In this document: positions 30,958-49,585 of the stretch, piece after piece
Numbering within the stretch: the first letter of the stretch is position 1
Layout: each line of letters starts with the position of its first letter
Virus record (IMG/VR): IMGVR_UViG_3300049482_000044
Coordinates: 64,001 to 115,231 of that record
Direction: 5' to 3' (one strand)
Source: a virus
Taxonomy: Duplodnaviria > Heunggongvirae > Uroviricota > Caudoviricetes
DNA: 51,231 bases
Notes under the pieces: generated by a model
Seen by the model: only the letters and a program-made list of their open reading frames with translations
What the model was told of the DNA's origin: nothing
Databases searched by the model: none
Program-made: the position numbers and the translations under genes

Positions 30958-33900
30958 ATGGCTGTAGTACAAGTAGAATTCAGAGCAAACGCTAACTTCT
31001 CCGACCTAATCGCCCAGACAAATGCCGCGAATGCTTCCGTTAAGGCTCTGAATGCATCATTCGGGTCGCTACAAAAGCAGAAGATCGATAGCATTGTCAA
31101 TGCGTTTAATCAATCATTGACGAGTAGCGGTCAGTACACAGCCCAGACCGTTAGACTTACCAGCGAAGCAGAGCGCTTTGGCAAGGCACTAGACAGGCAG
31201 AAACTATCACTAAGAGACTACCACCGAGAGTACCAGTCATTTAAGCAGACTCAGGGCGGTATGATTCGTGAACTCGCCCGTCAGCAGACCATGCTAGAGC
31301 GCTCTGTCGTTGTTTCTCGTGGCCGTGACGCCCAGGGTCGTACTCTGGCTGACGTTATTACTCCTACAGGCCTAGATAACGGCATAGCGACAAAGGCTAT
31401 GCAGGCCCGCAAGGAACTCCAGATTATGAACAAGGTTCTTAATGATGGGGCAACCTCGCTGATCAACTGGGGTAAGAATACTCAGTGGGCCGGTCGTCAG
31501 TTGACCGTTGGACTTACCGTTCCTTTGACGATCCTTGGTGGAGCCGCTGCAAAGATGGCATACGACCTTGATATGCAGATGACCAAGGTTGTCAAGGTTT
31601 ATGGTAACTCTATCAATGCGATGATGACCGCACCAGAAGTAACTGCTCTTAAGAGCCAGTTGACCGACCTAGCGAAGCAAATTGCTCAGACATACGGCCA
31701 GTCCGCCACAGACACGCTTGACCTGGCCGCTCAATTAGCGGCGGCGGGCAAGACGGGAAGTGACCTTACTGCCTCTATTACTCAGACAACCAAACTAGCC
31801 ACGCTTGGTGAAATTGACCGTGCCGATGCTATGGCTGCTACTCTGTCAATTCAGACAGCATTCAAGCAGTCGAACGCTGAACTAGCCGATAGCATTAACT
31901 TCCTGAACGCCGTAGAAAACCAGACATCCAGCAGCCTGCAGGACTTTGTTGAGGCTATTCCAAAGACCGGCCCTATCATCAAGGGTCTTGGTGGAGATAT
32001 CAAGGATCTTGCACTGATGATGGTTGCTATGAAGGAAGGTGGTGTTCCCGCCACCGAGGCTGCCAACGCTATCAAGTCTGGTTTGTCCAGTCTGATTAAC
32101 CCAACTCGCAACGCGCGCGACGCCCTTTCTGGTTATGGTATTTCAATGGACAAGATCCAGAAGGATTCCGGCGGAAAGATGATGCCGATGATCCTTGGAT
32201 TCAAGAAGGCTATTGATGGACTAGACACTTTCAGCCGCAGTCAGGTGCTTGAAAAGGTATTCGGAAAGATGCAGTTCGCTCGTATGTCTGCCATGTTTAG
32301 TAACATTGGCGAGGCGGGCAGCCAGACAGTTGAGGTAATGAAACTAATGGGTGCCTCTACTGAGCAACTAGCCGGAATTGCTGACTCCGAGTTAAAGGCT
32401 CTGAGCAACTCTATTTCTGGTCAGTTCAACCGCGCGCTTGAATCAATGAAGGTAAACCTCGCTAGCGTCGGTGATGAATTCCTGGTACTAGGAACCAAGG
32501 CCCTACAGGGACTTAACTGGATTTTCGACAAGTTCGACTCACTTCCAGATATCGTTAAGAAGGCTCTAGGAGGGCTGGGACTTGGAGTAGCCATTATTGG
32601 TCCGGTCATTATGACAGTCGGTGTGCTCGGAAACCTTGTCGGATACTTGATCAAGGGCTTTGCTTGGTTCAAGTCGTTTGGTAATTCTGGCGTCCGCGCC
32701 TTTGGCCTTCTGAATGCCGAAATGGTTGCAACGAAGCACGCTGGTGACCTACTTGAAAAATCCATGTTCAACCAGTCAGAAGCAGCGAATGTTCTTAATG
32801 CTTCTATCGAAAAACTAATTGCATCGCTAGCAGGTGTCGGACCAGTCGCGTCCAATTCTGGTAAGGCTATGGTTAATGCCATCAATGAATCGCAGGCTGC
32901 AGCAACCCGTGCCACTATGGCTGATCATGAGAAGCAGGCTTTTGCGCGTCAAGGCCAGGTGTATATTAACCCAATTCATTCGCCATCTACAAGTGTGGAT
33001 ATGTTCAATGTTGGGGAAGTTTCCCACTTTAGCCCCACATCTCACAAGGATGAGAGCGTGCATGGTATATCGAATAAGAAACTTATTGCTGGGTCGTCCC
33101 TTGTAACTCCTGAGGCTGCTTACATGTTCCAGCGAGAGGCAAAGGACTCTTTCCATGCCCAGTTCATGAACGAAAAAACAGTGACTGATGTCGAGCGAAA
33201 GGCTGTTCTGCAAAAGATGGTTGCGGAAATTAAGGCACCCGCACAAAAGGCTGCGGCGCAGGGATGGCTTGATAAGACCGGCCCAGAGGGCCGTGCACAA
33301 CTATTGCCGACAATTCAAGCAGTGAAGGGTATTAATGCTAAGTACGTAGCACAACTTCAGGCGCTGGCTACGATGTCTAAGGATGATCTACGACTGCTAC
33401 GGGTTGGTATGGACGCCGACGTTAAGCAAAATGGCAGGACCAGGCAGCAGGCGCTGGCGGCTGCCATGAAGGGAATTAATTCGACTGCCTTCCATAATGA
33501 AATAGTCGCACAAATTGATTCTATTAATGCTTCTGAAAAGGATGCTATTGTCGCTGCTAGAAAGATCTCTCTATACCTAGATGATCTAGAGGCACGCGCG
33601 CGCGCGGCTATGAAGGCTACCTCCGGATTGAAGAACGGGTCTCTTGGTTTTAGCAATGACGGTAGACGGGGTTATGGTGTTGCTAGTGGAATGATGGCAA
33701 ACCTTACAAATGAGTATAATACTGCAAATATGTCTCCAGAGAATAGGGCGCGCGCTGCTGCAATTGCGGTGAGAGGGTCTACTGGTGCTGATCTAACTAC
33801 CGCCCGTGCAGAATACAAGGCTGCGATGCAGGCGCTCGATGCATCCAGAGAGCAGGAGCGGGCCGCTAGATTGCAGTCTCGTGCTGCTGCTATGCAATTG

Positions 33901-36900
33901 GCTAATGCAGAGCGCGGGGCCGTCACAGAAACCACAAAGGCTGGCGCTGCTGCTATGGATGCAGGCATGGTTCCTGGCGGAGCGGGCGGGAAGATGAAGA
34001 AGTTTGGCAAATATGCTGGCGTCGGTGCTGGCGTCGCCCTGCTTGGTGCTGGTGCTGCTAATTCTGATTCTAACCTTGGTATGGCCTCTGGCGTCGCGGG
34101 CGGTGCTATGACTGGCGCTATGATGGGAATGATGCTTGGACCAGAGGGTGCTGCGGTGGGTGCTGTTGCTGGTGCCATAATGGCTGGATTGCCCATGCTT
34201 GTCAGCCGTGTTAACGAAGCAACCGCCCAGATGAATTCACTTGGAGTTGCTGGTGAAACAGCCGCTTCGAAGTTTGGCGCATCCGTCAAGACACTGGCCG
34301 ATGTTCACATCACAAACCTGGCAGAGCAGACCAAGGCCGCGCGGTCGGAAATCGATGCGCTAACAGAGTCGTTCAAGAACGCAGCCGAAGGCTCTGCTGA
34401 CGCTGCATTTATTAAGTTGCTTACTGGGGAGTCCGACAAAAATAATCTTCGCGGCCTTATCGGAGACAAGATCACATCGCTGCTGGCTGCGGGGGTAAAG
34501 CCTGATGATGTGAAGAAGATTATCACCGCAGCCCTAACCGCTTCCGGTCAATCAAGTCAGATCGGCAGTATTTTTACAACTATGGGCGAAGATATGAAAC
34601 TATCTGTCGGTGAGTCTATTCGCAAGCAACTTGAAAGCGCTCGCACACAGTGGACTACAACTGGCGACATGAACTGGGATACAGGAAAAACACCTGGCTT
34701 CACGAGCATGAATTTCGATGATGCTAAATCAGCAGCCGAATCTCTTACCACTATGTCAATTGCCATGGGGCAATCAGGAAACTTTGCGGAATTCAATAAG
34801 CAACTTGGTATAGTTGGCGACAAGATTATGGATATAAGAGACCTGACGCCACAACTTACCGACGAGTGGAAGGATTATGGCGCAGCGATGGAGAAGTCTG
34901 GTGGAACATCTGCCCAGATGCTTCAACTAATTGCGCTGAAGGCGGCGGGTCTTAATCTTGATTTACAGCGTCTTACTGAGCACCCATATGAAATCAGCGT
35001 GGTAATGACTCAGTTTCAGAATACGCAGTCAATTGATAGCGCACTAAAAACCGGTTCTAATTCTGTTATTGATGCCAAGATCGCCAAGTTGCGAGACTCT
35101 AACCCTGTAATCACGGCTCAGAAGGAGAAGTCTAACAAGGCTGCCGAAGATGCCCAGCAGAAGCATATTGATGCTATCGGTAAGATGTACGACAAGCAAA
35201 TCGAGGCAGAAAAGAAGCGCCAGGCTGATCTACAGCGTGTGCAGGATGCTGAGAAGCGCCGTCTAGACCGCGAGAAGTCTATGCGTGACGATCAGGTCGG
35301 ATATAACCAGGCTATTGCTGCTGGTAACTTCGGTCAAGCCGCATTGATCAAGAACAACATGGATGCTAAGCAGGCTGCCTGGGCGCTCGAAGATAAGCAG
35401 CGCGGTGCTGACGAAAAGAATAAGTCTCGTCTAGATGTGCTAGAAACCGCAAAGGCTTCTGCCCTAGACAAGGAAAAGGCTAAACTGGATGCGCTGAAGA
35501 AGGCTCACGAGGCTGTTAATAATAGCGCGACTTCTGCTGCTAAGAAAATGGCTGACTCGCAGATCGCAGCCCTTGAAAAGGTTAAGGTGGCGGTTGACGA
35601 AGCGATGAAGCGTAACCCAACTAGCGTCGCTAAGGCTATGAAGGAAATCACCGAGAACCCTGCGAACATGGAACTACTTCGTCAGGCGGGCGTCAGTGCG
35701 ATGGACGTCTTTGGTAAGGCTCTACGTGACGAAGGCCCAGCCCTCACAGCAGGATTTATGAACCAGTTCGGCAAGAACCTTGTGTCCGCTCCGTGGGATC
35801 TAATCGAGAACTATCTGGCAGCCAGGATCTCTGGTGATCCCGGCGATATTCGTGCCGCTAGAGAGGCGCTGCTGTCTGGTGCTCCCAGCGCGACCCCGAC
35901 AAACGCTGCTCGCGCTGGCGCTGTATCTAAGGCAACCAAGATCCCATTTGCTACTGGTGGTTATATCGCTGGTCAGGGCCACGGCACATCTGACCAGATC
36001 GATGCAAGACTAAGCAACGGCGAATATGTTGTAACAAATGCTGCTGTTAACTGGTATGGCAAGGGGATGCTTGACCAGATCAATACCCGCCAGTATGCTG
36101 AGGGTGGCATAGTTCAGCCTCTAGCACAAAGGGCAACTGCCGATGCCTTCACCAGTGTGCTTGCTGGTCGTATGTCACTGCTTCGCTCTGGTGCGGGCAT
36201 GTTCGGCTCTAGCCCTGCCGACCCAGGCGCGGGGGCAATTGCTGGTGGCGCTAGCAACGGAATTGCCGGAAGCGCCATGGGATCAGCAATTGCCCGCTAC
36301 GCCCTACAGTTCGTTGGTGTTCCTTACAGTTACAGCGGGTCTACGCCTCAGGACGGATGGGGCTGCGCGCCATTCGTTCGCTATCTATATGACAAGTTTG
36401 GCTATAACATTCCTGGTGGATCTGTTTCTAATAGCCAGTACAACTCGATCAAGTCGCACCCAGACCGTGGATCAATCGGTGCCGGTGACCTTGTATTCTT
36501 CAAGTACGCTAATGGTCTGAATACAGGCAATGCCATCAACCACGTTGGTATGGCTCTTTCTGGATCAGCGATGATTCACGCAGCGAACCCATCGCGCGGA
36601 ACAATCGTTTCTGGAATTGACTGGGCAAACTATCGTGGAGCCGCACGACCTGTCGACTTCGCAACTGGGGTGAAGAACTACTCCAAGGGCGGAATTGCCA
36701 TGCTAGGCAAGCCTGGTGAATATATGGTAAATGACAGTGCGGTTCAACACTATGGAACTGGCTTTATGAATGCTGTGAATAACCAGACATATCACGGCGG
36801 CGGACTTGTAACGGCAGGCGGACCACAGCGCGGAGTTGCATCTGGCGGCGATGGACAGTATAGTTTCATTATCTACGGTGGAGATAATGACCCTTCAGAA

Positions 36901-36963
36901 ATAGCAGATGAGGTTATGCGTAGACTTGATAAGAAAAAGGCGAGGGTGGGTAGCGGACGTTGA
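30958..36963 (+). CDS. Tape measure protein with C-terminal NlpC/P60 peptidase domain
   Basis: 2001 aa, Ala-rich helical; TMP core (NWGKNTQWAGRQLTVGLTVP); ALQFVGVPYSYSG...GC..FV...GDLVFF...HVGM..MIHA. Confidence 0.93.
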   Translation: MAVVQVEFRANANFSDLIAQTNAANASVKALNASFGSLQKQKIDSIVNAFNQSLTSSGQYTAQTVRLTSEAERFGKALDRQKLSLRDYHREYQSFKQTQGGMIRELARQQTMLERSVVVSRGRDAQGRTLADVITPTGLDNGIATKAMQARKELQIMNKVLNDGATSLINWGKNTQWAGRQLTVGLTVPLTILGGAAAKMAYDLDMQMTKVVKVYGNSINAMMTAPEVTALKSQLTDLAKQIAQTYGQSATDTLDLAAQLAAAGKTGSDLTASITQTTKLATLGEIDRADAMAATLSIQTAFKQSNAELADSINFLNAVENQTSSSLQDFVEAIPKTGPIIKGLGGDIKDLALMMVAMKEGGVPATEAANAIKSGLSSLINPTRNARDALSGYGISMDKIQKDSGGKMMPMILGFKKAIDGLDTFSRSQVLEKVFGKMQFARMSAMFSNIGEAGSQTVEVMKLMGASTEQLAGIADSELKALSNSISGQFNRALESMKVNLASVGDEFLVLGTKALQGLNWIFDKFDSLPDIVKKALGGLGLGVAIIGPVIMTVGVLGNLVGYLIKGFAWFKSFGNSGVRAFGLLNAEMVATKHAGDLLEKSMFNQSEAANVLNASIEKLIASLAGVGPVASNSGKAMVNAINESQAAATRATMADHEKQAFARQGQVYINPIHSPSTSVDMFNVGEVSHFSPTSHKDESVHGISNKKLIAGSSLVTPEAAYMFQREAKDSFHAQFMNEKTVTDVERKAVLQKMVAEIKAPAQKAAAQGWLDKTGPEGRAQLLPTIQAVKGINAKYVAQLQALATMSKDDLRLLRVGMDADVKQNGRTRQQALAAAMKGINSTAFHNEIVAQIDSINASEKDAIVAARKISLYLDDLEARARAAMKATSGLKNGSLGFSNDGRRGYGVASGMMANLTNEYNTANMSPENRARAAAIAVRGSTGADLTTARAEYKAAMQALDASREQERAARLQSRAAAMQLANAERGAVTETTKAGAAAMDAGMVPGGAGGKMKKFGKYAGVGAGVALLGAGAANSDSNLGMASGVAGGAMTGAMMGMMLGPEGAAVGAVAGAIMAGLPMLVSRVNEATAQMNSLGVAGETAASKFGASVKTLADVHITNLAEQTKAARSEIDALTESFKNAAEGSADAAFIKLLTGESDKNNLRGLIGDKITSLLAAGVKPDDVKKIITAALTASGQSSQIGSIFTTMGEDMKLSVGESIRKQLESARTQWTTTGDMNWDTGKTPGFTSMNFDDAKSAAESLTTMSIAMGQSGNFAEFNKQLGIVGDKIMDIRDLTPQLTDEWKDYGAAMEKSGGTSAQMLQLIALKAAGLNLDLQRLTEHPYEISVVMTQFQNTQSIDSALKTGSNSVIDAKIAKLRDSNPVITAQKEKSNKAAEDAQQKHIDAIGKMYDKQIEAEKKRQADLQRVQDAEKRRLDREKSMRDDQVGYNQAIAAGNFGQAALIKNNMDAKQAAWALEDKQRGADEKNKSRLDVLETAKASALDKEKAKLDALKKAHEAVNNSATSAAKKMADSQIAALEKVKVAVDEAMKRNPTSVAKAMKEITENPANMELLRQAGVSAMDVFGKALRDEGPALTAGFMNQFGKNLVSAPWDLIENYLAARISGDPGDIRAAREALLSGAPSATPTNAARAGAVSKATKIPFATGGYIAGQGHGTSDQIDARLSNGEYVVTNAAVNWYGKGMLDQINTRQYAEGGIVQPLAQRATADAFTSVLAGRMSLLRSGAGMFGSSPADPGAGAIAGGASNGIAGSAMGSAIARYALQFVGVPYSYSGSTPQDGWGCAPFVRYLYDKFGYNIPGGSVSNSQYNSIKSHPDRGSIGAGDLVFFKYANGLNTGNAINHVGMALSGSAMIHAANPSRGTIVSGIDWANYRGAARPVDFATGVKNYSKGGIAMLGKPGEYMVNDSAVQHYGTGFMNAVNNQTYHGGGLVTAGGPQRGVASGGDGQYSFIIYGGDNDPSEIADEVMRRLDKKKARVGSGR

Positions 36964-37376
36964 TACTACCTCGCGGATCTATCCTGTCGGTTAATAACGG
37001 CACTCTTTCTGGAACACTTACAGAGCATGGTCGCTCCCCGCTTAATCTTTCCACAGAGCGCATAGGCTCAAAAGAGCGCATGTGGAACGGTACGATGCGG
37101 GCAGGATTTGTAGCGATTAAGTATACCCTTGATACCTCCTGGTCCATGCTTCCTTCGCTGGACACAGCGGCGGTCGATGGATATAAGGCGGGTAAGTGGA
37201 TCAAGGATTTCTATGATTCAACAACCGGAACGGTAGCACTGACCTTGAATTATGATGGAACGGATCTCGCTGTGACAGCACTGATGACTTCTTTTTCGTA
37301 CGTAGTCAACAAGCGCACTACCAATGCTGGTAACTACGACCTTGTAGATATATCAATTACTTTTGAGGAAGTTTAA
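36960..37376 (+). CDS. Distal tail (Dit-like) protein, putative
   Basis: 138 aa directly after the TMP; LTEHGRSPL...RM.NGTMR...W..LPS. Confidence 0.7.
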   Translation: MILPRGSILSVNNGTLSGTLTEHGRSPLNLSTERIGSKERMWNGTMRAGFVAIKYTLDTSWSMLPSLDTAAVDGYKAGKWIKDFYDSTTGTVALTLNYDGTDLAVTALMTSFSYVVNKRTTNAGNYDLVDISITFEEV

Positions 37377-40300
37377 TGCTTGGTAATGCAACAGACAAGG
37401 CATATACCGCTGGTAACACAGTAACCCAATTTGATGAGTCTCTATTTGTAGAACTTAATCAGAATTATTACTATGACATTCTGCCGCCCGATGTGTCCGT
37501 TTATGGGACGTTGGAGCCTGGATTCTATAAGAAGTTCTTTCCGCTCGATTCGGTCGTCAAAGGCTGGCGTCCAACTAGCGGAGTATATAAGCCTCGCAAA
37601 ATGTCATGGGGTCAGGCAACTACATATGGACTTAAGGGCACCAAGGGGTGGCGCAATAACATCACTGAAAACAGCACCCCGCAGTTGGGTGCCTCTACTG
37701 GTCAGCGCGAGGAGTATATTGCCAAGCCAAGAGTCTATTGGGCGCGTGAAGGACAGACATTCAAATACTGGGATAGCCCCGTAGTTATTGCTAGTTCCGC
37801 GTATGTCCATCCCTGGATCGAATACACGGCGGACGTAAAGACTAATAAGATTTCGGTGACGTTCCAGAATGTAATGGGCAGCCCAGTTCGATTCAAGATC
37901 CAGTATAAAACCAATGCTGGTTCTGGCGGCACATGGGTAGATGCTCTCGACGCAACTGGCGCTGACTACAGTATGCCATCAACGGGCGTTGTAGAAGTAT
38001 ATCGGAGTTCTGGATCGTGGACTCAGTCTCCAACAACCTATTTGCTAACAGACGCAATTAGCATCCGTCAGATTCGCGTATTCATCACGAAGATGTCCGA
38101 CCCAGCAATTCACCCTTCGATCATCGAGATGTCACCAAGACTATATATCGACATGTCCGATAGGCTAAAGGACTGGAGTTTCGATGCCAATATTGCGGAG
38201 TCTAATTCCGTGCTGCCTGTCGGTACTGTATCGAGCAATAGCGGATCTGTAACGCTGAGCAACAACGATAACGAACTAGAGCCCACAAACGCTGGTGGCG
38301 GGACTTTGAGGTACGCAGACCTTATGCGTAAGTACGCTAAGGTTGTCGTTAAGTTAAAGGCTGTCACCGCTGGATCGTCCTGGGTAGAAGCAGGAACAGC
38401 ATATATCGAGAAGGCCACTCCCAGCGGTAATAAGACCGTTGTTAATGTGACGCTATTCGACTATGCTAAGTTCCTACAAGATCAGCCCGCTCCGGATGTT
38501 TGCATGAATCAGGTATCGCCTACTGCTGCAATTCGGCAGTTGCTAGATACTACTGGTCACACGAACGTTCTAGTTAAGCGCGTCAAGGATCAGTCCGAGC
38601 CGATTATGCGTTGGTTCTGGTCGAATTCAGAAGAAACAGTCTGGGACGCTATTCAGAAGATCTGTGAGTCTCACCAGTACGCTGTATATATTAACGAAAA
38701 GAACCAGATCGTCATTATGACGAAGGAATATATTTACCTGAGTTCTACTGCTGTATATGCTGCGACTACCGAGGGAACGACGCTGAGTGCTGTAACGTAT
38801 GTCCCTAACGTTCAGGACATCTCCAATAATAAGGACGAGCCAATCAATGCTGCCTATGTTACATTCCGTCCTAAGAGCCTATCCAGTGAAGTAGATCCAG
38901 ACCCAGCGAAATATGCTGCGACGAATCAGGTGGCATTCAGCCGTATCGCAACGAGAGACCTATATGTTCCAGATCAGCCCATTCTACTAGGCGTAGCCCC
39001 AATGATTCAGACCATGGACTCTAGCCAGAATTACCTGTATATCAACCCTACCTCACTGGCCGGTGCCGGGGCAAAGAATAGCCTGGATGGTAATGGCATA
39101 CCTAGAATACCTCTATGGGGTGGTTTTTCTGGATACTTGCTGATTGACCAGGAAATCATTAAATACGACGGACTGGAACTTGCCTATACAGCAAAGGCGG
39201 GCAGTCCTGCTGGACCTCAGATAGCGAAGTCTCCTGAGCAGTGGCAGGAAATTATCAACTACGCACAGGGCTCGGTTGTATTCACTGGCAAGGTCTGTAA
39301 TCTTGAGCGTGGGCAGTTTAATACAACTGCCGCTGCACACACACTCAGCACTACTGGATGGACCAGCGCCCAGGGCGTAGTTCGTAGGGCTGACGAAACC
39401 GGTAACGGCTATTTGTGCATTCGCAATAGCACTGCGGGGGCCAAGCGACTGAATTGGACCGTGAAAAACATTCAGTCTAATGGTAACTGGGTAAACACCA
39501 AGATGGTTATTGACACCGGTCTAAAAACAGCAGTCCAGGCCGGTGGAATAGTGTTGTCAGCAACTCTATCTGGCGCTAACCTTTCTACCGGTCTGTATGT
39601 CGAGGCCAACCAGATCGGTGATGGCGGCGTTTCGCTTTACACCATTTCAAACAATATCATCGCCGCTGCTCCTATTGCTACAGTAAAGTTCAATATCCCT
39701 GACGGTGGACTTTTCGATCTTTCTGTTTATATCGCGCGCGGTGCGACAAGCACTTCTAGAATCGTCAGCGTGTATGTGAATAGATCAAGGGTTCTATCAA
39801 AGACGTTCACCACTACCGTGCCGCTTACCAGTTTGGTTGGACTAGGGTCGAGCGGCAATTCATCTGTGAAGTTTGACTATATTTGTGGTGGCAGCACCAC
39901 GCTCGGTGATGAGCAGTCGAAGTTCGACGGGTCAATCAAGGCATATGTCGAGTCTGTTCTTAAGATTGATCGTGGGCAGCAGTTGAGCAGGGCCATGCCA
40001 GACCTAGCAAGCATAGGTTTTGAGCGCTTTGATGACTATGTCCGTCAGATGTTCGTTGAGGACGTAAGTTTTAGTAAGACACCCGCGCTATCGGCAGACT
40101 TTGTTGCTACATCTAGCATCGTAAAAGACCCACTGAGTAGACAGTCAATTGCTTCTGGTGATGAAGTGGCTGGTGCTATAGCGAACATCACATCCTTCTC
40201 TGCTAAGGTTCTTATCGCCAATGTGTCATCAAGGTCGCTGCTGCTGGTATTCACTGACGAGTCTGGCGGGTCAACAAACTACCCACGAATCAACGGTATT

Positions 40301-40636
40301 CATGTCAACGAATTTGAGGAAGTTAGAATCAGTAAGCGTGATGAGGCCTCTGTCAACCGAATTGGTGAAAAGAAAGTCGACTTTAACCCTCGCTGGATTA
40401 CCTCTCGTAGCAATGCTGAAAGCGTTTCATCATGGATCGTAAGTCGTTGCAAGGACGGTGTGGATCGCATCACTGCAACAATCTGGGCCGGTCATCTATT
40501 ACAACTGGGGGATGTGCTTTACGTGCATTCTCCAAGTGACCAGAAAAACATCTCAGCAAACTATGTCGTAGTTGGAGCCAATAAGTCTGGCAGTGGAGGA
40601 AATATCGCAACTAGTGTAGACTTGGTCAAGATATGA
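37376..40636 (+). CDS. Tail hub/large minor tail protein
   Basis: 1086 aa; LPVG..SSNSGSV.L.N, WDAIQKICES, GH.LQLGDVL motifs; synteny. Confidence 0.8.
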   Translation: MLGNATDKAYTAGNTVTQFDESLFVELNQNYYYDILPPDVSVYGTLEPGFYKKFFPLDSVVKGWRPTSGVYKPRKMSWGQATTYGLKGTKGWRNNITENSTPQLGASTGQREEYIAKPRVYWAREGQTFKYWDSPVVIASSAYVHPWIEYTADVKTNKISVTFQNVMGSPVRFKIQYKTNAGSGGTWVDALDATGADYSMPSTGVVEVYRSSGSWTQSPTTYLLTDAISIRQIRVFITKMSDPAIHPSIIEMSPRLYIDMSDRLKDWSFDANIAESNSVLPVGTVSSNSGSVTLSNNDNELEPTNAGGGTLRYADLMRKYAKVVVKLKAVTAGSSWVEAGTAYIEKATPSGNKTVVNVTLFDYAKFLQDQPAPDVCMNQVSPTAAIRQLLDTTGHTNVLVKRVKDQSEPIMRWFWSNSEETVWDAIQKICESHQYAVYINEKNQIVIMTKEYIYLSSTAVYAATTEGTTLSAVTYVPNVQDISNNKDEPINAAYVTFRPKSLSSEVDPDPAKYAATNQVAFSRIATRDLYVPDQPILLGVAPMIQTMDSSQNYLYINPTSLAGAGAKNSLDGNGIPRIPLWGGFSGYLLIDQEIIKYDGLELAYTAKAGSPAGPQIAKSPEQWQEIINYAQGSVVFTGKVCNLERGQFNTTAAAHTLSTTGWTSAQGVVRRADETGNGYLCIRNSTAGAKRLNWTVKNIQSNGNWVNTKMVIDTGLKTAVQAGGIVLSATLSGANLSTGLYVEANQIGDGGVSLYTISNNIIAAAPIATVKFNIPDGGLFDLSVYIARGATSTSRIVSVYVNRSRVLSKTFTTTVPLTSLVGLGSSGNSSVKFDYICGGSTTLGDEQSKFDGSIKAYVESVLKIDRGQQLSRAMPDLASIGFERFDDYVRQMFVEDVSFSKTPALSADFVATSSIVKDPLSRQSIASGDEVAGAIANITSFSAKVLIANVSSRSLLLVFTDESGGSTNYPRINGIHVNEFEEVRISKRDEASVNRIGEKKVDFNPRWITSRSNAESVSSWIVSRCKDGVDRITATIWAGHLLQLGDVLYVHSPSDQKNISANYVVVGANKSGSGGNIATSVDLVKI

Positions 40637-41604
40637 ACGTAAATGCTGACAAGATTATCTGGACTGGTAATACACTAGACGAACTACGTAGGTTACTGGG
40701 CGGGGATATCGAGATAGAGTTCCCCGAAATGATGGACCGCGCTGGCCTCGATTATCCCTGGCCTATCATCGTAAAGTCTGTCAGTTATTCGTCCGAGGGT
40801 AAAAAGGAAGAATATGTCGTAATCGTACTAGGCTTCGATGAGGTTCCGAATGCTAGCGACTATGAGGTTCGTATTAGCCTTGTTCCCGCTGCAAAAATGG
40901 GGCCACCATCCGATATTATTGCGTTTAATGCAGCGGGAGGCTATGTTGGTAATTCCTCATCGTGGGGCGGTACGCTATCGTCTCCAATAACAGCCGGGGA
41001 TAGATGTATATTAGCAATCAATGCTGCTGAGACTCCTTCTGGAATGTTTTCCACATGGACCAAGGTTATTTCTGGCACTGCTAGTCCCGGTAATGGACAG
41101 TATGAGACATCAATATGGATAGGGTCCGGTATCGGAACCGGGACCATATCTGTTACCGCAAATGAGTATGGCGTAGCAGGAGCGGGAGCACACTTTGGCT
41201 CAGACACCGCCGCATTTATATACAGAAACTGCGGGAATCTGTCAATTGCAAGCCAATCTGTATATACAGTCACAACTGGAGCAGAAACACCCATGTCTGC
41301 TGCTGCGCTCACAACATCGCCCGGACAAATTGCGTTTTCTGTTGTTATGTCTGTAAAAGCATTCCTAGATGGTTGGTGCCCCAGATCTGATGGAAGTCGG
41401 GCAGTAACAGGGTTTATTGATACTTATTCAGGCAGACTCGGATCGGGGCTTGATTATGAAACGACGGCACATGGAATGGCTGCGGTGACAGGTGTAACAA
41501 CAGGGGCCAGCATGGACGCATCCTTTGATATGGTTGGCACTTATGCTGGGTACGCACAAAAGGGCCAGGTTAGAAACGTAGTGTTTAACTGGAGTGGCGT
41601 ATGA
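40633..41604 (+). CDS. Tail-tip protein, paralog 1 of 3
   Basis: Conserved N-terminal module (ADKIIWTGNTLDE...DYPWPI...GFDE....DYEVR) plus a beta-rich C-terminal domain. Confidence 0.8.
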   Translation: MNVNADKIIWTGNTLDELRRLLGGDIEIEFPEMMDRAGLDYPWPIIVKSVSYSSEGKKEEYVVIVLGFDEVPNASDYEVRISLVPAAKMGPPSDIIAFNAAGGYVGNSSSWGGTLSSPITAGDRCILAINAAETPSGMFSTWTKVISGTASPGNGQYETSIWIGSGIGTGTISVTANEYGVAGAGAHFGSDTAAFIYRNCGNLSIASQSVYTVTTGAETPMSAAALTTSPGQIAFSVVMSVKAFLDGWCPRSDGSRAVTGFIDTYSGRLGSGLDYETTAHGMAAVTGVTTGASMDASFDMVGTYAGYAQKGQVRNVVFNWSGV

Positions 41605-42524
41605 AAAATATTAACGCCGACAAGATCATCTGGACCGGGAATACGCTCGATGAGATGCGCCGATTGCTCGGTGGTGACATAGAAATAGAATTTCCCGAGA
41701 TGATGGATAGGGCGGGGCTGGACTATCCATGGCCTATATCTATTCTCGGCGTAAACTATGATTCAACAAGTCAGTCTGAATACGTATACGTGCGTCTAGG
41801 TTTTGATGAGATAAATGGTGCAAGTGACTACGAAGTACGGATTAGTCTCGTCCCGCCCCCCGCACCCCCTGCGGTGTCGGACAGGTTTGGTATGTATCCA
41901 GCCGGTGCCGCATTCCTTCAATCATCTCTATCTAGTCCAATAACTGCAAACGATCGCTGCATCATGATAATGGGCGATATACCTGACGGTCCATCTGGCA
42001 TGTTCTCAACATGGACAAAAATATATGGAGACAACTCTGCCTCATGGAAACTATCCGTTTGGATGGGGTCGGGGGTAGGATCGGGAAATCTTTCTGTCAG
42101 TAGTGCCGTGTACACAGGCTTTGGTGTTTATGGAATTCACTCTGTTGGTTTTATATTTAGAGATTCAGGAAATATGGCGCTTGTTGATAGTTCTATAGAT
42201 TCTCAGGTATCTACCGTGACACCTATCTCGGCTCCAGCGCTGACTGCTGCAAAGGACCAGATAGCCGTTTCTGGAGTTGTTGGTAAGTCCGGATTTTTGG
42301 ATAGGTATGCTCCAAGCCAATATGGTGGTCGAGTAGTTACAGGCTTTGAGGATCATTATGCCTGGGCAGCCGATGGAGATGCTGACCTATACAGCAAGGG
42401 GGCAGCCGGGTCTGCGGGTAGGACGTTTGGCGGAACCGTGGACGGATCATGGGACATGGCAACCAGCAGTGGCGATGGTGGGGGACAGGCCGGTAACTTC
42501 GTGTTCACTTGGAGCGGTGTATGA
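41601..42524 (+). CDS. Tail-tip protein, paralog 2 of 3
   Basis: Same N-terminal module; C-terminal domain homologous to paralog 1 (LSSPIT.DRCI, PSGMFSTWTK, VFxWSGV end). Confidence 0.8.
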   Translation: MKNINADKIIWTGNTLDEMRRLLGGDIEIEFPEMMDRAGLDYPWPISILGVNYDSTSQSEYVYVRLGFDEINGASDYEVRISLVPPPAPPAVSDRFGMYPAGAAFLQSSLSSPITANDRCIMIMGDIPDGPSGMFSTWTKIYGDNSASWKLSVWMGSGVGSGNLSVSSAVYTGFGVYGIHSVGFIFRDSGNMALVDSSIDSQVSTVTPISAPALTAAKDQIAVSGVVGKSGFLDRYAPSQYGGRVVTGFEDHYAWAADGDADLYSKGAAGSAGRTFGGTVDGSWDMATSSGDGGGQAGNFVFTWSGV

Positions 42525-43450
42525 AAAATATTAATGCAGATAAGATCATATGGACTGGAAATACACTAGATGAGATGCGTCGCCTACTCGGCGGTGACAT
42601 CGAAATAGAATTTCCCGAGATGATGGACCGCACAGGCCTGGATTATCCATGGCCTATTACAGTTAAGTCAGTCGAGGCTGTGTCTGACCCGGCTGGTGGA
42701 GTGTGGGCGACAATCATTCTAGGATTTGATGAGATTTCTGGGGCTACCGACTATGAAGTCAGGACGAGCATACAGGCTGGAAGTAGCACCCCGCTTAAGA
42801 TTTTTTCTCTATGGAACAACACACCTGGGGGCGCAGGCTACGCTCTTCTTGGTGATAACAGTGTTCGACTGACGCCAGCGGCGTACGGTCAAGGTACTTG
42901 CATTCGCTATCCCGACGTATTAAGCGGGTGGTCGAAGTTGGAGATCTCGTTTGATATTACTCAGTCATACTTGGAGGCAGACGGTTATGCGATTGCGCTA
43001 GAAGACGCTTTAATTTATTCACCTACATATATTGGAGATGGAGGGCAGAGGATTTGGTTTAATCAACAGGGCGGCGGAATCAGTGGTTATAACGGAATGG
43101 ACAATAGTCAAGGTCGGTACTCTATTTTCTTTGAAAGTATCTACCCATATACTGGTAATAGTGGTCCTACAATACAGTCGAATAGCACTTACGCGGGCGG
43201 CATGTCAACTGTTTACACGACGCTCGCCAGAGGGGCCTGGGCTATGACTGGAACCCACAACCTAAAAATAACCTGGACTCGAACTGCATATGAAACTGCA
43301 AACATGGTAGTAGTTCACGATAATAATGAAACGCTTTCTATGAGCGTCTTCGCACCTCAGAATGCTAGACTCAGTATTACAGCCGCCACTGGTGTCGCCT
43401 GGAATGATCACAGTGTGTCTAATTTCTCTGGTACTGTGACAAGATCTTAG
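42521..43450 (+). CDS. Tail-tip protein, paralog 3 of 3, with an L-type-lectin-like C-terminal domain
   Basis: Start at ATG 42521 (ATGA overlap); same N-module; unrelated C-domain VRLTPAAYGQG...ISFDI...ADGYAI resembling the legume-lectin fold. Confidence 0.75.
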   Translation: MKNINADKIIWTGNTLDEMRRLLGGDIEIEFPEMMDRTGLDYPWPITVKSVEAVSDPAGGVWATIILGFDEISGATDYEVRTSIQAGSSTPLKIFSLWNNTPGGAGYALLGDNSVRLTPAAYGQGTCIRYPDVLSGWSKLEISFDITQSYLEADGYAIALEDALIYSPTYIGDGGQRIWFNQQGGGISGYNGMDNSQGRYSIFFESIYPYTGNSGPTIQSNSTYAGGMSTVYTTLARGAWAMTGTHNLKITWTRTAYETANMVVVHDNNETLSMSVFAPQNARLSITAATGVAWNDHSVSNFSGTVTRS

Positions 43451-43453
43451 TGT

Positions 43454-43482
43454 TCGACTTTTCTTGATGGGATTGATATAAT
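43454..43482 (+). promoter_or_regulatory. Sigma70-like promoter, probably leaderless
   Basis: TCGACT-17 nt-TATAAT with TG extension; ATG 6 nt after the -10. Confidence 0.6.
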
Positions 43483-43488
43483 CAAAAG

Positions 43489-44421
43489 ATGCAAGGAACA
43501 TACGTACTTAGTCAAAACGGTGTAGAACTCGCCCGCTCAACCAATATCATTACCACAGAGGGTAAGAAGATTATTGCTTCCTATCTGGCCGGTATTGCTC
43601 CTAGTTGGGCTGGTGCGATGGCTATTGGTACTGGAACCACCGCCGCAGTTGTTGGAGACACGCAACTCGCCCTAGAATTCGCAAGGCAGGATGTAACCAG
43701 CAAAGCCGTCCTCATCGGTGGTGGTACTGCTGGTGCTCACCGAATTATTGCCAAGACTACAGTCCCGCAGGAAATCGCCGGTAACGTGTATGAATTAGGC
43801 ATCTATTCACTATCGACTGGTGTATCGTCGGCAAGCCCAAGTAAGGTGCTCGTCGGTATGGCTGCGTCTGGTGATTGGGAGGTCTACAGCGGTGGCAACT
43901 GGATTGCCTCAGCACAGGTACCAGAAACCACATACTATCGTGCGGGCGTAGATTCGGTAACACTGGCAACCTCGGCGGCGACGACAAAATATCGCTACAA
44001 TCTAGGTTCCGCTGATTTCAGCATGTACGGTGGACTTGACAAGATCAGTTTTGGTGCTTATTATACGGTTGGCACACTTACCTCCGTTGCTCTTAAGTTC
44101 TATTCAGACGACTCAAACTACTATTCATACACACCTACTCTCGCCACCCTGATAGGTGGAGCGACAAATACTTATACAACCAGTTCATTTACTAAGTCAT
44201 CGTGGGCGGCGACCGGGTCGCCGTCCTGGTCGAATATAACAAGCATTGGTGTTGATGTAGCGAGCGCCGGGTCGGCAACAGCCCACATCGACCTGATCAG
44301 AATTGATGACTCAGACAATTCAGACCCGAACTACGCACTGGTCAGTCGCAGCATTCTAGTTGCGCCACAGACCAAGGCGGCGGGGTCTGAAATGGATATT
44401 GAATACTTCTTGGACTACTAA
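43489..44421 (+). CDS. Minor tail/baseplate-like protein
   Basis: NIITTEGKKIIASYLAG...MAIGTG....D..L..EFAR...YELGIY...K..GSEMDIEY. Confidence 0.75.
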   Translation: MQGTYVLSQNGVELARSTNIITTEGKKIIASYLAGIAPSWAGAMAIGTGTTAAVVGDTQLALEFARQDVTSKAVLIGGGTAGAHRIIAKTTVPQEIAGNVYELGIYSLSTGVSSASPSKVLVGMAASGDWEVYSGGNWIASAQVPETTYYRAGVDSVTLATSAATTKYRYNLGSADFSMYGGLDKISFGAYYTVGTLTSVALKFYSDDSNYYSYTPTLATLIGGATNTYTTSSFTKSSWAATGSPSWSNITSIGVDVASAGSATAHIDLIRIDDSDNSDPNYALVSRSILVAPQTKAAGSEMDIEYFLDY

Positions 44422-46524
44422 GTGGAATACAAACTCGATAGGCTGAAGCCTGGTGCTAAATATGTAGCACAGATTAGATCTCTTAATGACGAAGAAACTT
44501 CAGAATGGTCCCCCGGCTTTTATATCACCACACCTGTTGATACAACTATTCCTGCCAATCTAGGTACTGTTACAGCGACATATGTTAACGGCGCATTTAA
44601 GTATGCCTGGCCCGCTGTTGTATATAACGTAGACGGCACCGCTATAAAAGATCTTGACGTATATGTCGTAACGATCAGCGACGGAACAAATAGTTTTGTT
44701 GAAACAACAGAGACACTAAGTTTCGTCGTTGATCAATCTACCTATTCAGGAAAACTTGGTTCAGGCCCCACCGTCTCCTGCTCTGTCAAAGCAAGAGATT
44801 ATTCAGCAAACCAGTCTGTAACAGCATCCAGCGCCAGTCTAACCGCCCCCGTTACATCAACCGTCACCGGTTTTACAGCCACGGGTACCCAGGGCCAGAT
44901 AAGTCTTAAATGGACCGCTGTAACAAATGTTCCCGTACTAAAGTATGAAATCTATGCTGGTGATACATCGGGATTTACCCCCGACACCACAACTTTTACA
45001 AACCTTGTAACTTCGACTAGCAGTACCGATGCCATCTGGTCTGCTGGTACTACGGTTGTTACATCAAAATACTTCAAAATTCGTGCAGTATCTATCTACA
45101 GCATTCCTTCTGCTGCTTTTACGTCAGCAAACTCTTCAACCTCATTCGTGGATACCCCGCGAGACTCAACTGATATTAATACAACGCTCGGTGCAATTGG
45201 TTTCTGGAAACTAGATGAATTGTCTGGAACTACTGCTACCGATTCTGGAATCAATCTTAATAACGGAACATATACAAACGGGGTGCTGTTAAACCAGACT
45301 AAGGTATTTCCAAACGCGAGTGCTAAATCAGCATACTTTGATGGAACTGATGACCACGTAGTCATTTCCACAACTAACTACCAAGCGCTGACTAGCGCCT
45401 GGTCCGTAACTGCTGTTGTAAAGCCGGGACTGACTACAGAGCAGGTTATATTAACTCACACCTACGCTGGCGGTGGAATACCATTTATTATTGCTACTGG
45501 TGGAGCAAGCACCTCAACTACTGCTGGCAAATTTATTGTTGGTTTTTACAATGGATCGTGGCGGGCAGTTAATAGTACGACCTCCTTCGTAACTGGTCAG
45601 GCCTACGTGGTTACTGGCACATGGGATGGAACCAATCTTAAGATCTATATCAATGGACTACTTGAAGCGACTGCTGCGCCTGGATCTAGTCCAACCTCCG
45701 CCACTGCCAGCAGTATTTATATTGGAAGGCGCTGGGATTCTGCTGCTTCAAACTATTTTAATGGTAATATTTCAGATGTAAGCATTTATGGTAGATGCCT
45801 ATCTGCTACCGAGGCTTCTGCTATTTATGATGTTATTTCTGGCAGTAGCGGCGGGGGTGCCATTACTGTTAAGGATGAAGGGACGACACTTACGGCCGCT
45901 GCTACTACGATTAACTTTGTTGGGGCGGGAGTAACTTCAACAAATGTGGGCCCATCTGTAACCGTAACCGTTCCTGGCGGTGGCGGGCATGTCATCTACG
46001 AGGAAACAACTGCACTTTCACCGCGCTCGAAACTAAGATTCCTTGGTCCATCTACCGCTGTTGACAACTCTGGCAACGATTCTACTGATGTAACAGTAGT
46101 AGGTGTATTTAGTCAGGCCTCCGCGCCGTCTAGCCCCGCTGTTGGTGCGATGTGGTATGACAACGATGCCCCTGATATAGCAGCAACAGATGCTGTTGTG
46201 TCATTCGGGCCTAACAGCCAGGCTCTCACTGCTACTTATGCGACTATAACATACGTCACAACACTTACTACCGGCTCATGGTTGGTACAAATAGACGCTG
46301 ATGGAATCATTTACACCGGATATATGCCATGGAAAACTGGCTCGGTGACTGGAAATGCATTTAGCGAACTCTTGCTGACAAGGGCGAGTTTAACAACCCC
46401 GTCACAAACAATAACTGCTAGAATATATGGAGACAACACGGATAACACGCAGAAGTTCCAACTTGCTGCTACAGGAAGTTTTACAGTGACAAACCTCTAT
46501 CTTACATTTAGGAAGTTAATTTAA
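44422..46524 (+). CDS. Tail fibre/receptor-binding protein (FnIII-like + LamG + tip domain)
   Basis: LKPGAKY..QIRS...SEWS FnIII-like start; FWKLDELSGTTATDSG...LamG domain; C-terminal tip domain shared with 49614-51092. Confidence 0.8.
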   Translation: MEYKLDRLKPGAKYVAQIRSLNDEETSEWSPGFYITTPVDTTIPANLGTVTATYVNGAFKYAWPAVVYNVDGTAIKDLDVYVVTISDGTNSFVETTETLSFVVDQSTYSGKLGSGPTVSCSVKARDYSANQSVTASSASLTAPVTSTVTGFTATGTQGQISLKWTAVTNVPVLKYEIYAGDTSGFTPDTTTFTNLVTSTSSTDAIWSAGTTVVTSKYFKIRAVSIYSIPSAAFTSANSSTSFVDTPRDSTDINTTLGAIGFWKLDELSGTTATDSGINLNNGTYTNGVLLNQTKVFPNASAKSAYFDGTDDHVVISTTNYQALTSAWSVTAVVKPGLTTEQVILTHTYAGGGIPFIIATGGASTSTTAGKFIVGFYNGSWRAVNSTTSFVTGQAYVVTGTWDGTNLKIYINGLLEATAAPGSSPTSATASSIYIGRRWDSAASNYFNGNISDVSIYGRCLSATEASAIYDVISGSSGGGAITVKDEGTTLTAAATTINFVGAGVTSTNVGPSVTVTVPGGGGHVIYEETTALSPRSKLRFLGPSTAVDNSGNDSTDVTVVGVFSQASAPSSPAVGAMWYDNDAPDIAATDAVVSFGPNSQALTATYATITYVTTLTTGSWLVQIDADGIIYTGYMPWKTGSVTGNAFSELLLTRASLTTPSQTITARIYGDNTDNTQKFQLAATGSFTVTNLYLTFRKLI

Positions 46525-48778: not shown

Positions 48779-49585
48779 ATGTCATACGCATCTGAGGTAT
48801 TAGCAGACAGTCCACTAGTCTATTTAAAATTGGATGAAACCTCTGGGTCTACCGCTAATGATTCATCTGGTAATGGGTACAATTTTACCTATACATCTGC
48901 CGCTCAGTTAAATAGCGGTGTGACCGCCGATGGAAGTGTAGCGGTTGGAACTGACGGCACCAATGCAATAGCAAAGTACGGGTCGCTGGTTCCTGGTCTG
49001 GGGAGTCCCACAGCATTCACCCTTGAGGCCTACGTATATATAGAAACAACAGTCGAGTCGGGTGGCTTCATTGCTGTAGGAAATAATGGTGGAAACGGAT
49101 ACGGCTATGGTGTTGGTGGACCCTCAAGTTTTGAACAGACTGGCAACCAGTTTGACGGTCTGGCTGACACCTTGGCTTGGAAAAATACCGGAGTTAATCT
49201 GGGAACCGGCTGGAGACATGTTGTGTTAGCACGAGATGCCACTGGTTGGTTTTATTATCTCGGCGGCTCGCTTGTTTCTTCTCTCAGCGCACAGTCTATA
49301 GCCACAGCGACATCAGAGGTATATATAGGTGGTTATACTGCTGGCGGAAGAGCGCTAAGCGCTGGAAATAAAATGGCGCATGCCGCTATATATACAAGCA
49401 GGTTGAGTGGCGCTAGAATTGCTACACATGCTGCTGCGGGCGCTAATTATCAGATAATGGATACACTCTTGGCGGGCGCAGTGGGAACACAGCCATCGCC
49501 TTTCTACCCGTTCGGTGAAGGCGTATCAGGTGGCGGGGCTGTAGTTCCAACAACCGGCCAGACCTGGCCTAGGGGCAATTGGTAA
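48779..49585 (+). CDS. LamG/ConA-like domain protein
   Basis: YASEVLADSPLVYLKLDETSGSTA.DSSGNG; FTLEAYV; WRHVVL; MAHAAIYTSRLS; PTTGQTWPRGN tail. Confidence 0.8.
   Translation: MSYASEVLADSPLVYLKLDETSGSTANDSSGNGYNFTYTSAAQLNSGVTADGSVAVGTDGTNAIAKYGSLVPGLGSPTAFTLEAYVYIETTVESGGFIAVGNNGGNGYGYGVGGPSSFEQTGNQFDGLADTLAWKNTGVNLGTGWRHVVLARDATGWFYYLGGSLVSSLSAQSIATATSEVYIGGYTAGGRALSAGNKMAHAAIYTSRLSGARIATHAAAGANYQIMDTLLAGAVGTQPSPFYPFGEGVSGGGAVVPTTGQTWPRGNW

Follow-up and report, generated by a model that had tools for sequence, protein, structure and literature searches.

In IMG/VR, one virus record of 115,231 bp has direct terminal repeats, and its right-hand 51 kb (IMGVR_UViG_3300049482_000044, positions 64,001 to 115,231; this whole 51,231-nucleotide stretch is called the window below) carries a plus-strand tail operon in which three tandem genes, c1, c2, and c3, directly follow the gene for the tail hub. 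The operon reads tape measure, distal tail protein (Dit)-like protein, hub, c1, c2, c3, a 310-residue tail protein (p310), and a 700-residue fiber-like protein (p700). The source is an uncultivated large phage, distant kin of Streptomyces phages. Each of the three tandem genes encodes the same N-terminal anchor module (N-module) followed by a C-terminal head domain.

40633-41604, + strand: copy 1 (c1), 323 amino acids, directly 3' of the hub gene
40633-40887, + strand: N-module of c1, residues 1-85, from alignments and profile search
40888-41604, + strand: C-domain of c1, c1/c2 type, two beta-sandwich subdomains, ending VFNWSGV; ~50% identity to copy 2
41601-42524, + strand: copy 2 (c2), 307 amino acids
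41601-41855, + strand: N-module of c2, residues 1-85, from alignments and profile search
41856-42524, + strand: C-domain of c2, c1/c2 type, ending VFTWSGV, with an AlphaFold2 (AF2) model
42521-43450, + strand: copy 3 (c3), 309 amino acids from its ATG; the mechanical open reading frame begins at TTG 42509
42521-42778, + strand: N-module of c3, residues 1-86, from alignment and profile search
42779-43450, + strand: C-domain of c3, predicted L-type (legume/ERGIC-53-like) lectin fold, from profile and fold matches

ATGA overlaps link all three junctions (hub/c1, c1/c2, and c2/c3), and the c3 ATG at 42521 overlaps the c2 stop codon. The open reading frames and junctions thus verify the initial annotation of three consecutive, translationally coupled genes directly after the hub. 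Because the WSG codons of c1 and c2 (TGGAGTGG and TGGAGCGG) hold the GGAG Shine-Dalgarno sequence of the next gene, the conserved WSGV C terminus of these two copies may be under a double constraint, partly at the RNA level. The WSGV codons lie at 41587-41604 and 42507-42524 (TGGAGTGGCGTATGA and TGGAGCGGTGTATGA) and span the GGAG site as well as the ATGA overlap with the next gene.

The first 46 residues of the N-module are nearly invariant in this genome. Copies c2 and c3 are identical at 45 of 46 positions, c1 departs from c2 by two differences and a one-residue indel, and protein identity among the three is 95-98%, in agreement with the earlier description of a shared module of ~85 residues with a near-identical start. 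In a search of the phage's own genome, the copies find one another at E values of 3e-37 to 3e-81, far past chance. The DNA beneath this peptide has diverged extensively: the first 46 codons of c1 and c2 differ at 30 codons synonymously and at 2 nonsynonymously, with a third-position identity of 0.29, and across all pairs third-position identity is 0.29-0.56, so that silent sites are saturated. A near-identical protein over saturated silent sites rules out recent gene conversion as the source of the identical N termini, which are old copies held by very strong purifying selection at the protein level.

The constant 46-residue peptide comprises an N-terminal amphipathic helix (..ADKIIWTGNTLDEMRRLLGG), a short acidic linker, and a DYPWPI motif, and is followed by a copy-specific stretch of ~35 residues; the beta unit of the module extends from DYPWPI to GA.DYEVR. 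Models of the module display the N-terminal helix and then three to four short strands. Within the beta unit, residues 47-81 are only 44-53% identical between paralogs. When the window is compared by position with L006, a metagenomic relative, identity of the beta unit is 0.86 for the two c1 copies, 0.76 for c2, and 0.66 for c3, against 0.44-0.53 between paralogs. This conservation by position across genomes argues that the triplication arose before the window and its nearest kin from metagenomes (L006 and L008) diverged and that it has been maintained since. The constant part itself varies in a coordinated manner, with T12/E32/M33 in the window and S12/D32/I33 in both c1 and c2 of L006; such co-variation among paralogs within a genome would be expected if they co-evolved with a shared partner, although it concerns three positions only.

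The N-module is widely distributed and is combined with many different heads. A profile built from the three copies was searched against 1.84 billion representative proteins and retrieved 51 representatives of metagenomic protein clusters, of 62-1597 residues. The module is found at the extreme N terminus in 47 of the 51, and most contain it almost complete; in the few longest proteins, it is partial or lies inside the chain. Stand-alone modules of 86-130 residues also occur, the longer of which have an acidic linker of ~40 residues between the helix and the beta unit. The C-terminal parts of the N-module proteins form at least 15 clusters without BLAST similarity to each other, and GH16 and GH71 glycosidases are among the domain types fused to the module. 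The commonest head is the c1/c2 type (16 representatives), after which some longer proteins add GH16, or GH16 and GH71. With ~50 clusters and at least 15 unrelated C-domain types, the proposal of a constant N-terminal module with exchangeable C-terminal domains extends well past the window.

Gene order in relatives provides a second view of this modularity. A scan of the viral_contigs collection with a narrow N-module profile returned nothing, and a medium alignment returned three loci. In all recovered loci, one to three N-module genes lie within the Dit-hub-p310-fiber block, at variable positions.

Window: hub, c1, c2, c3, p310
L006: hub, c1, c2, c3'
L008: three copies
L009: hub, N-module protein (280 amino acids), N-module protein (c2-type), p310
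L010 and L011: hub, N-module protein (525 amino acids), bare N-module (94 amino acids), N-module protein (c2-type), p310
L015: Dit, hub, N-module protein (558 amino acids), p310
L012: bare N-module (88 amino acids), p310
L013: hub, p310, N-module protein (1302 amino acids, GH16 and GH71), fiber
L007: Dit, N-module protein (263 amino acids), hub

The third copy of L006 has a c3-like anchor and a c1/c2-type head, with the swap point just past the YEVR motif. The third head therefore differs among close relatives: the window has a predicted lectin there, L006 has a domain of the c1/c2 type, and L008 has something else, while copies 1 and 2 are kept. Domain exchange in close relatives, which the initial annotation had anticipated, is thus observed at the third position. 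Multiplication of the gene is not unique to this genome: metagenomic relatives hold two to three copies, and the triplication is older than the divergence from the closest of them. The 1302-residue protein of L013 (P0035, L013:3384-7292) joins the N-module to GH16 and GH71 (the alpha-1,3-glucanase family) and is encoded between the p310 and fiber homologs; from its domains, it is probably a tail-borne polysaccharide depolymerase on the same anchor.

The head of c3 is unrelated to those of c1 and c2, as first proposed, since in the own-genome search c3 matches the other two copies at residues 1-106 only. Several lines of evidence place it with the L-type lectins, as its signature motifs had suggested. 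When a profile of c3-type domains was searched against PDB, ERGIC-53 matched along the whole domain (183 profile positions, E 0.0056). Hallmark motifs are present: EADGYAIAL and SITAATGVAWNDHSV of c3 align with GADGLAIWY and GISAATGGLADDHDV of ERGIC-53, bringing the ADG loop and the C-terminal SAATG..DH strand into register. In a structural comparison (VIA-align wide), the best matches of the c3 model (predicted local distance difference test, pLDDT, 51.5) are all L-type lectins, led by peanut lectin at Z 13.8 (186 residues aligned, root-mean-square deviation 3.8) and followed by the M. jannaschii legume-lectin domain (Z 13.4, 20% identity), ERGIC-53 (Z 13.1), VIP36 (Z 12.3), and Emp47p (Z 12.0). 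The Pfam family Lectin_leg-like (PF03388) stays below its cutoff of 24 bits, at 12.4 bits and E 0.1. The acidic cluster of ERGIC-53, FFDSFDND, has an ambiguous counterpart in the c3 alignment, which may be WFNQQ or else IFFESIYP. In a word-based search, the c3 head recovers only itself, and among N-module proteins the head has one close and three more distant kin. Taken together, these data indicate a predicted L-type-lectin-like fold for the c3 C-domain, for which glycan binding is likewise a prediction.

The heads of c1 and c2 belong to a different type. The two proteins align over their full length at ~50% identity and both end in VF(N/T)WSGV, which upholds their description as diverged homologs; the c1 head has an ortholog in L006 at 75% identity. 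A model of the c2 head from a 14-sequence alignment contains two beta-sandwich lobes, residues 88-192 and 193-305, at a pLDDT of ~90. The closest solved folds to c2 are at noise level (jelly-roll, carbohydrate-binding module (CBM), TNF-like, and adhesin folds at Z ≤4.8), and no fold is assigned; a shape search of the ESM Atlas with copy 2 likewise gave noise-level matches only. The c2 head fold does recur in predicted actinophage minor tail proteins (Foldseek against BFVD, E 1e-6 to 1e-3), for example in Mycobacterium phages Gaia and Tweety and Gordonia phage GodonK. Furthermore, the ESM Atlas contains c1/c2-type modules (TM ~0.7) on PhoD/purple-acid phosphatases (metallophosphatases), GDPD, GH99, and PKD/RCC1 proteins of phages and Actinomycetota. 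Because the module is attached to phosphoesterases and glycosidases in these proteins and is followed by GH16/GH71 elsewhere, the c1/c2 head may be a substrate-targeting, CBM-like module.

A bare form of the anchor may also exist in cultured phages. In Streptomyces phages Jollison and Coruscant, an orphan gene of ~120 codons with an N-module-like layout lies between the hub and the p310 homolog, and the statement that relatives have a single short gene at this position holds for the BK-cluster phages of Streptomyces. Comparison of the N-module alignment with Jollison gp63 (hhalign) gives E 8e-5 and a probability of 61%, and the N-module protein P0022 matches phrog_11696 at E 8e-5 over profile positions 60-119; BLASTP between the N-module and the BK-phage short protein yields no alignment. 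The gp63-type protein of the BK cluster (Stanwilliamsviridae), phrog_11696, resembles the window copies in its hub-X-p310 position and in its order of helix, acidic linker, and beta unit ending in ..DVR. Unlike them, it is single, ~120 residues long, and headless, with a long acidic linker and degenerate FPWP and YEVR motifs. Homology of the N-module to this short gene is probable, not proven.

These observations suggest a pathway from a small structural protein to a set of adhesins. The N-module would be an ancient small baseplate protein that stands alone in BK phages and in some metagenomic relatives. In the lineage of the window, this anchor would have multiplied, with each copy extended by an exchangeable head of glycan-binding type. 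Through this shared module, all copies would dock to the same partner within the Dit-hub-p310-fiber complex, and each virion would thereby present a variety of glycan-binding heads for the primary and reversible step of adhesion to the host envelope. We consider it probable, with a fair margin of doubt, that the three proteins are such paralogous accessory tail-tip adhesins, docked by a common N-module and giving each virion several heads of glycan-binding type.

Several points weigh against this proposal. The analysis shows the architecture, the modularity, the varying copy number, purifying selection, and a lectin-like fold, and from these we infer that the proteins are in the virion, dock through the N-module onto a candidate partner, bind glycans, and are displayed together on one virion; the copies may compete for or share one tail-tip site, as first proposed. 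The N-module finds no solved homolog in a sequence search of PDB, and its models have a pLDDT of 40-64. The fold matches of c3 derive from a model of low confidence, and, by our reading of its alignment with ERGIC-53, the canonical acidic Ca2+- and sugar-binding residues of this lectin class are not plainly conserved. For the c1/c2 head, neither Foldseek against PDB nor VIA-align wide with a second look finds a solved lectin or CBM above noise, and its binding role is read from domain co-occurrence. Moreover, the window's own copies miss phrog_11696 at E 0.01. A complex prediction of the N-module with p310 scored 0.00 and counts neither way.

The same genes might instead encode an obligate heterotrimer, in which c1, c2, and c3 assemble 1:1:1 through their N-modules into an asymmetric three-headed fiber, with several such fibers around the baseplate. 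Consecutive, translation-coupled genes suggest near-equimolar synthesis, the constant 46 residues beside position-conserved, copy-specific beta units fit three non-equivalent places, and the c1-c2-c3 order is kept in L006 and L008. The bare N-module among extended copies in L010 and L011 would suit a space-saving third chain, and a published precedent exists in mycobacteriophage Mysterious, a siphophage whose baseplate has six gp35/36/37 heterotrimers (PMC13252515). On the other hand, relatives work with one copy (L015 and BK phages) or two (L009), and the module can therefore assemble without three different chains, which leaves the obligate heterotrimer a doubtful, if serious, alternative.

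A more specific form of this idea holds that the heterotrimer is maintained by the identical 46-residue peptide while selection against tandem-repeat recombination drives the DNA apart at silent sites. Codon choice bears on this form. In the first 46 codons of c1 and c2 (40633-40770 versus 41601-41741), 8 of 38 informative same-residue positions have identical codons, against 14.1 expected from independent draws from phage codon usage (one-sided P 0.022, not significant after correction for three pairs). The c2-c3 pair has the opposite trend, with 21 identical codons versus 14.9 expected. The c1-c2 deficit hints, if only weakly, that nucleotide identity between neighboring repeats is selected against, and we rate the combined proposal as rather unlikely.

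In a third arrangement, the N-module would trimerize into the distal cavity of the hub trimer as a central plug or fiber anchor. Paralogs would then compete for a single site, generating virion subpopulations with different tips, and the bare forms of 86-130 residues would be simple plugs. In phage Mysterious, the N-terminal 64 residues of the central fiber protein insert in the distal cavity of the hub trimer, and the N-module layout of a helix and three to four short strands resembles the described gp30 N-terminal stalk, a likeness at the level of description (PMC13252515). The position of c1 directly 3' of the hub, its coupling to the hub, and the existence of bare forms are also as expected for a plug. 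However, p700 with its conserved N terminus, which has homologs of 360-2000 residues, is the more obvious central fiber, and the position of the gene relative to the hub is not fixed (L007 and L013), making this arrangement decidedly improbable. That the three are not virion proteins at all, and instead act in assembly or bind glycans as secreted or lysis-associated proteins, with the tail operon no more than their location, would agree with the lack of PHROG or Pfam annotation for the three copies, but it is very improbable indeed given that they are embedded and translationally coupled in the tail-tip block in every relative, that a head fold is common to annotated actinophage minor tail proteins, and that depolymerase-type enzyme fusions are typical of tail spikes.

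The proposal of docked accessory adhesins has parallels in several known systems, and a constant anchor with swappable heads, encoded by several genes in tandem, is an established design, so that the advance here is incremental. Klebsiella phage receptor-binding proteins (RBPs) (Latka et al. 2019, PMC6872550) and Ackermannviridae TSP1-4 (PMC11414711) are likewise encoded by tandem RBP-like genes with a conserved N-terminal attachment part and unrelated, horizontally exchanged C-terminal binding or depolymerase domains, in sets that differ between related phages. Unlike the window, these systems have a Gram-negative host and beta-helix tailspike heads, and the second RBP usually sits on a branching domain of the first. 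In the window, the same anchor is present on all copies in a parallel, unbranched manner, the heads are small beta-sandwich and lectin-like domains, and the anchor is also free-standing (86-130 residues); there is no sequence relationship between the systems.

Gram-positive siphophages decorate their tail tips with small beta-sandwich sugar-binding modules in a similar manner (BppA of Tuc2009 and evolved Dit/Tal; PMC6669499, PMC7291167). As in the window, such CBMs are additional to the main RBP or fiber, and their number varies between relatives (Hayes et al. 2019; Goulet et al. 2020). CBMs of the lactococcal type sit in Dit, Tal, the neck passage structure (NPS) protein, or a single BppA, whereas the window has a dedicated small anchor that is duplicated and whose copies are extended, alongside a minimal Dit of 138 residues. 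The inner tail fiber of Mysterious, an actinophage siphovirus, is also specified by three consecutive genes for beta-rich baseplate accessory proteins of similar size, gp35, gp36, and gp37, which use N-terminal arms for docking (PMC13252515). These are ~205 residues each, with neither an identical N-terminal peptide nor unrelated heads described, and they are likened to the window proteins by description only. Finally, c3 shares with ERGIC-53, VIP36, legume lectins, and bacterial SraP/Aap the L-type fold (Z 12-13.8, from its model) and the W..G...v.Lt..G, ADG, and SAATG..DH motifs; it differs in falling below the Pfam gathering score, in metal and sugar residues that are not clearly conserved, and in its place on a phage tail protein.

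What is new is an unannotated anchor family, its occurrence in both bare and fused form, and its parallel use in up to three tandem paralogs; the L-type lectin head and the link to an orphan gene of Streptomyces BK phages are also new. The anchor has no Pfam family, and its PHROG relative is without an assigned function. Within a clade of large phages related to the BK cluster, most of them uncultivated, the module serves as a marker of tail-tip accessory adhesins, and it would explain a short orphan gene in more than 100 sequenced Streptomyces phages as a bare anchor, homology being probable. With it, the exchangeable heads used for host recognition (lectins, CBM-like modules, and GH16/GH71 depolymerases among them) can be cataloged in metagenomes, and it offers a natural plug-and-play scaffold to study how actinobacterial siphophages add binding specificities.

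The remaining genes of the tail-tip block, and a promoter-like element, are as follows.

30958-36963, + strand: tape measure protein, 2001 amino acids, with PhageMin_Tail and NlpC/P60 domains
36960-37376, + strand: minimal Dit-like gene, 138 amino acids, role assigned from its position after the tape measure gene only
37376-40636, + strand: tail hub/minor tail protein, 1086 amino acids, phrog_10359 minor tail protein at E 5e-81, ATGA-coupled to copy 1
43454-43482, + strand: promoter-like TCGACT-17-TGATATAAT, ending 6 nucleotides 5' of the ATG of p310; consensus scan 10/12, extended -10
43489-44421, + strand: p310, conserved tail protein, 310 amino acids, phrog_9983 tail protein at E 1e-49
44422-46524, + strand: p700, fiber-like protein, 700 amino acids, with Laminin_G_3 (Pfam, E 3e-21) and fn3; phrog_11445 minor tail protein

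The Dit-like protein is 64-67% identical to its counterparts in L007, L009, and L010 and 38% identical to that in L015; its PHROG match is of unknown function, and a sequence search of PDB gave no match. Its 138 residues are about the size of the Dit N-domain alone. A minimal Dit without the usual C-terminal docking domain may be the reason that a separate small anchor protein exists. The 1086-residue hub, putatively so identified from its position and PHROG name, is conserved in L006, L009, L010, L013, and L015 and has no match among PDB sequences. Homologs of p310 (40-59% identity) adjoin N-module genes in L009, L010, L012, L013, and L015; p310 itself is 38% identical to minor tail proteins of BK phages and finds nothing usable among PDB sequences. 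In p700, an N terminus of ~240 residues is conserved and is kept in relatives' proteins of 360-1737 residues.

Cultured relatives are confined to phages of Streptomyces and Rhodococcus that belong to the BK-cluster/Stanwilliamsviridae type, at ~38% identity in the 310-residue protein. Queried with the locus and with copy 2, the phage collection gave no match at either the nucleotide or the protein level. A scan of genome_contigs for prophage copies of the N-module found none and provides no host assignment by that route; the host envelope is probably actinobacterial.

Leaderless mRNAs are common in actinobacteria, and the TGATATAAT element before p310 is probably a promoter for one, as judged from the sequence arrangement. 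No Shine-Dalgarno sequence precedes the gene after the element; most loci have p310 there, and L007 has the hub. The TGATATAAT-N6/7-ATG spacing recurs in L007, L012, L013, L015, Jollison, and Coruscant, and the sites lie at 43454-43491 of the window, L007:3505-3560, L012:323-378, L013:2423-2478, L015:9667-9722, L004:11586-11641, and L005:11595-11650. In Jollison and Coruscant, it stands before the short N-module gene itself. In the window, the element looks like a divide between a translation-coupled unit of the hub and c1-c3 and a second unit of p310 and the fiber.

The tail-tip region contains at least three concanavalin-A-like domains: the Laminin_G_3 domain of p700, a second Laminin_G_3 domain in a 268-residue protein (48779-49585), and the predicted L-type lectin of copy 3 (42779-43450), which suggests a heavy investment in glycan recognition.

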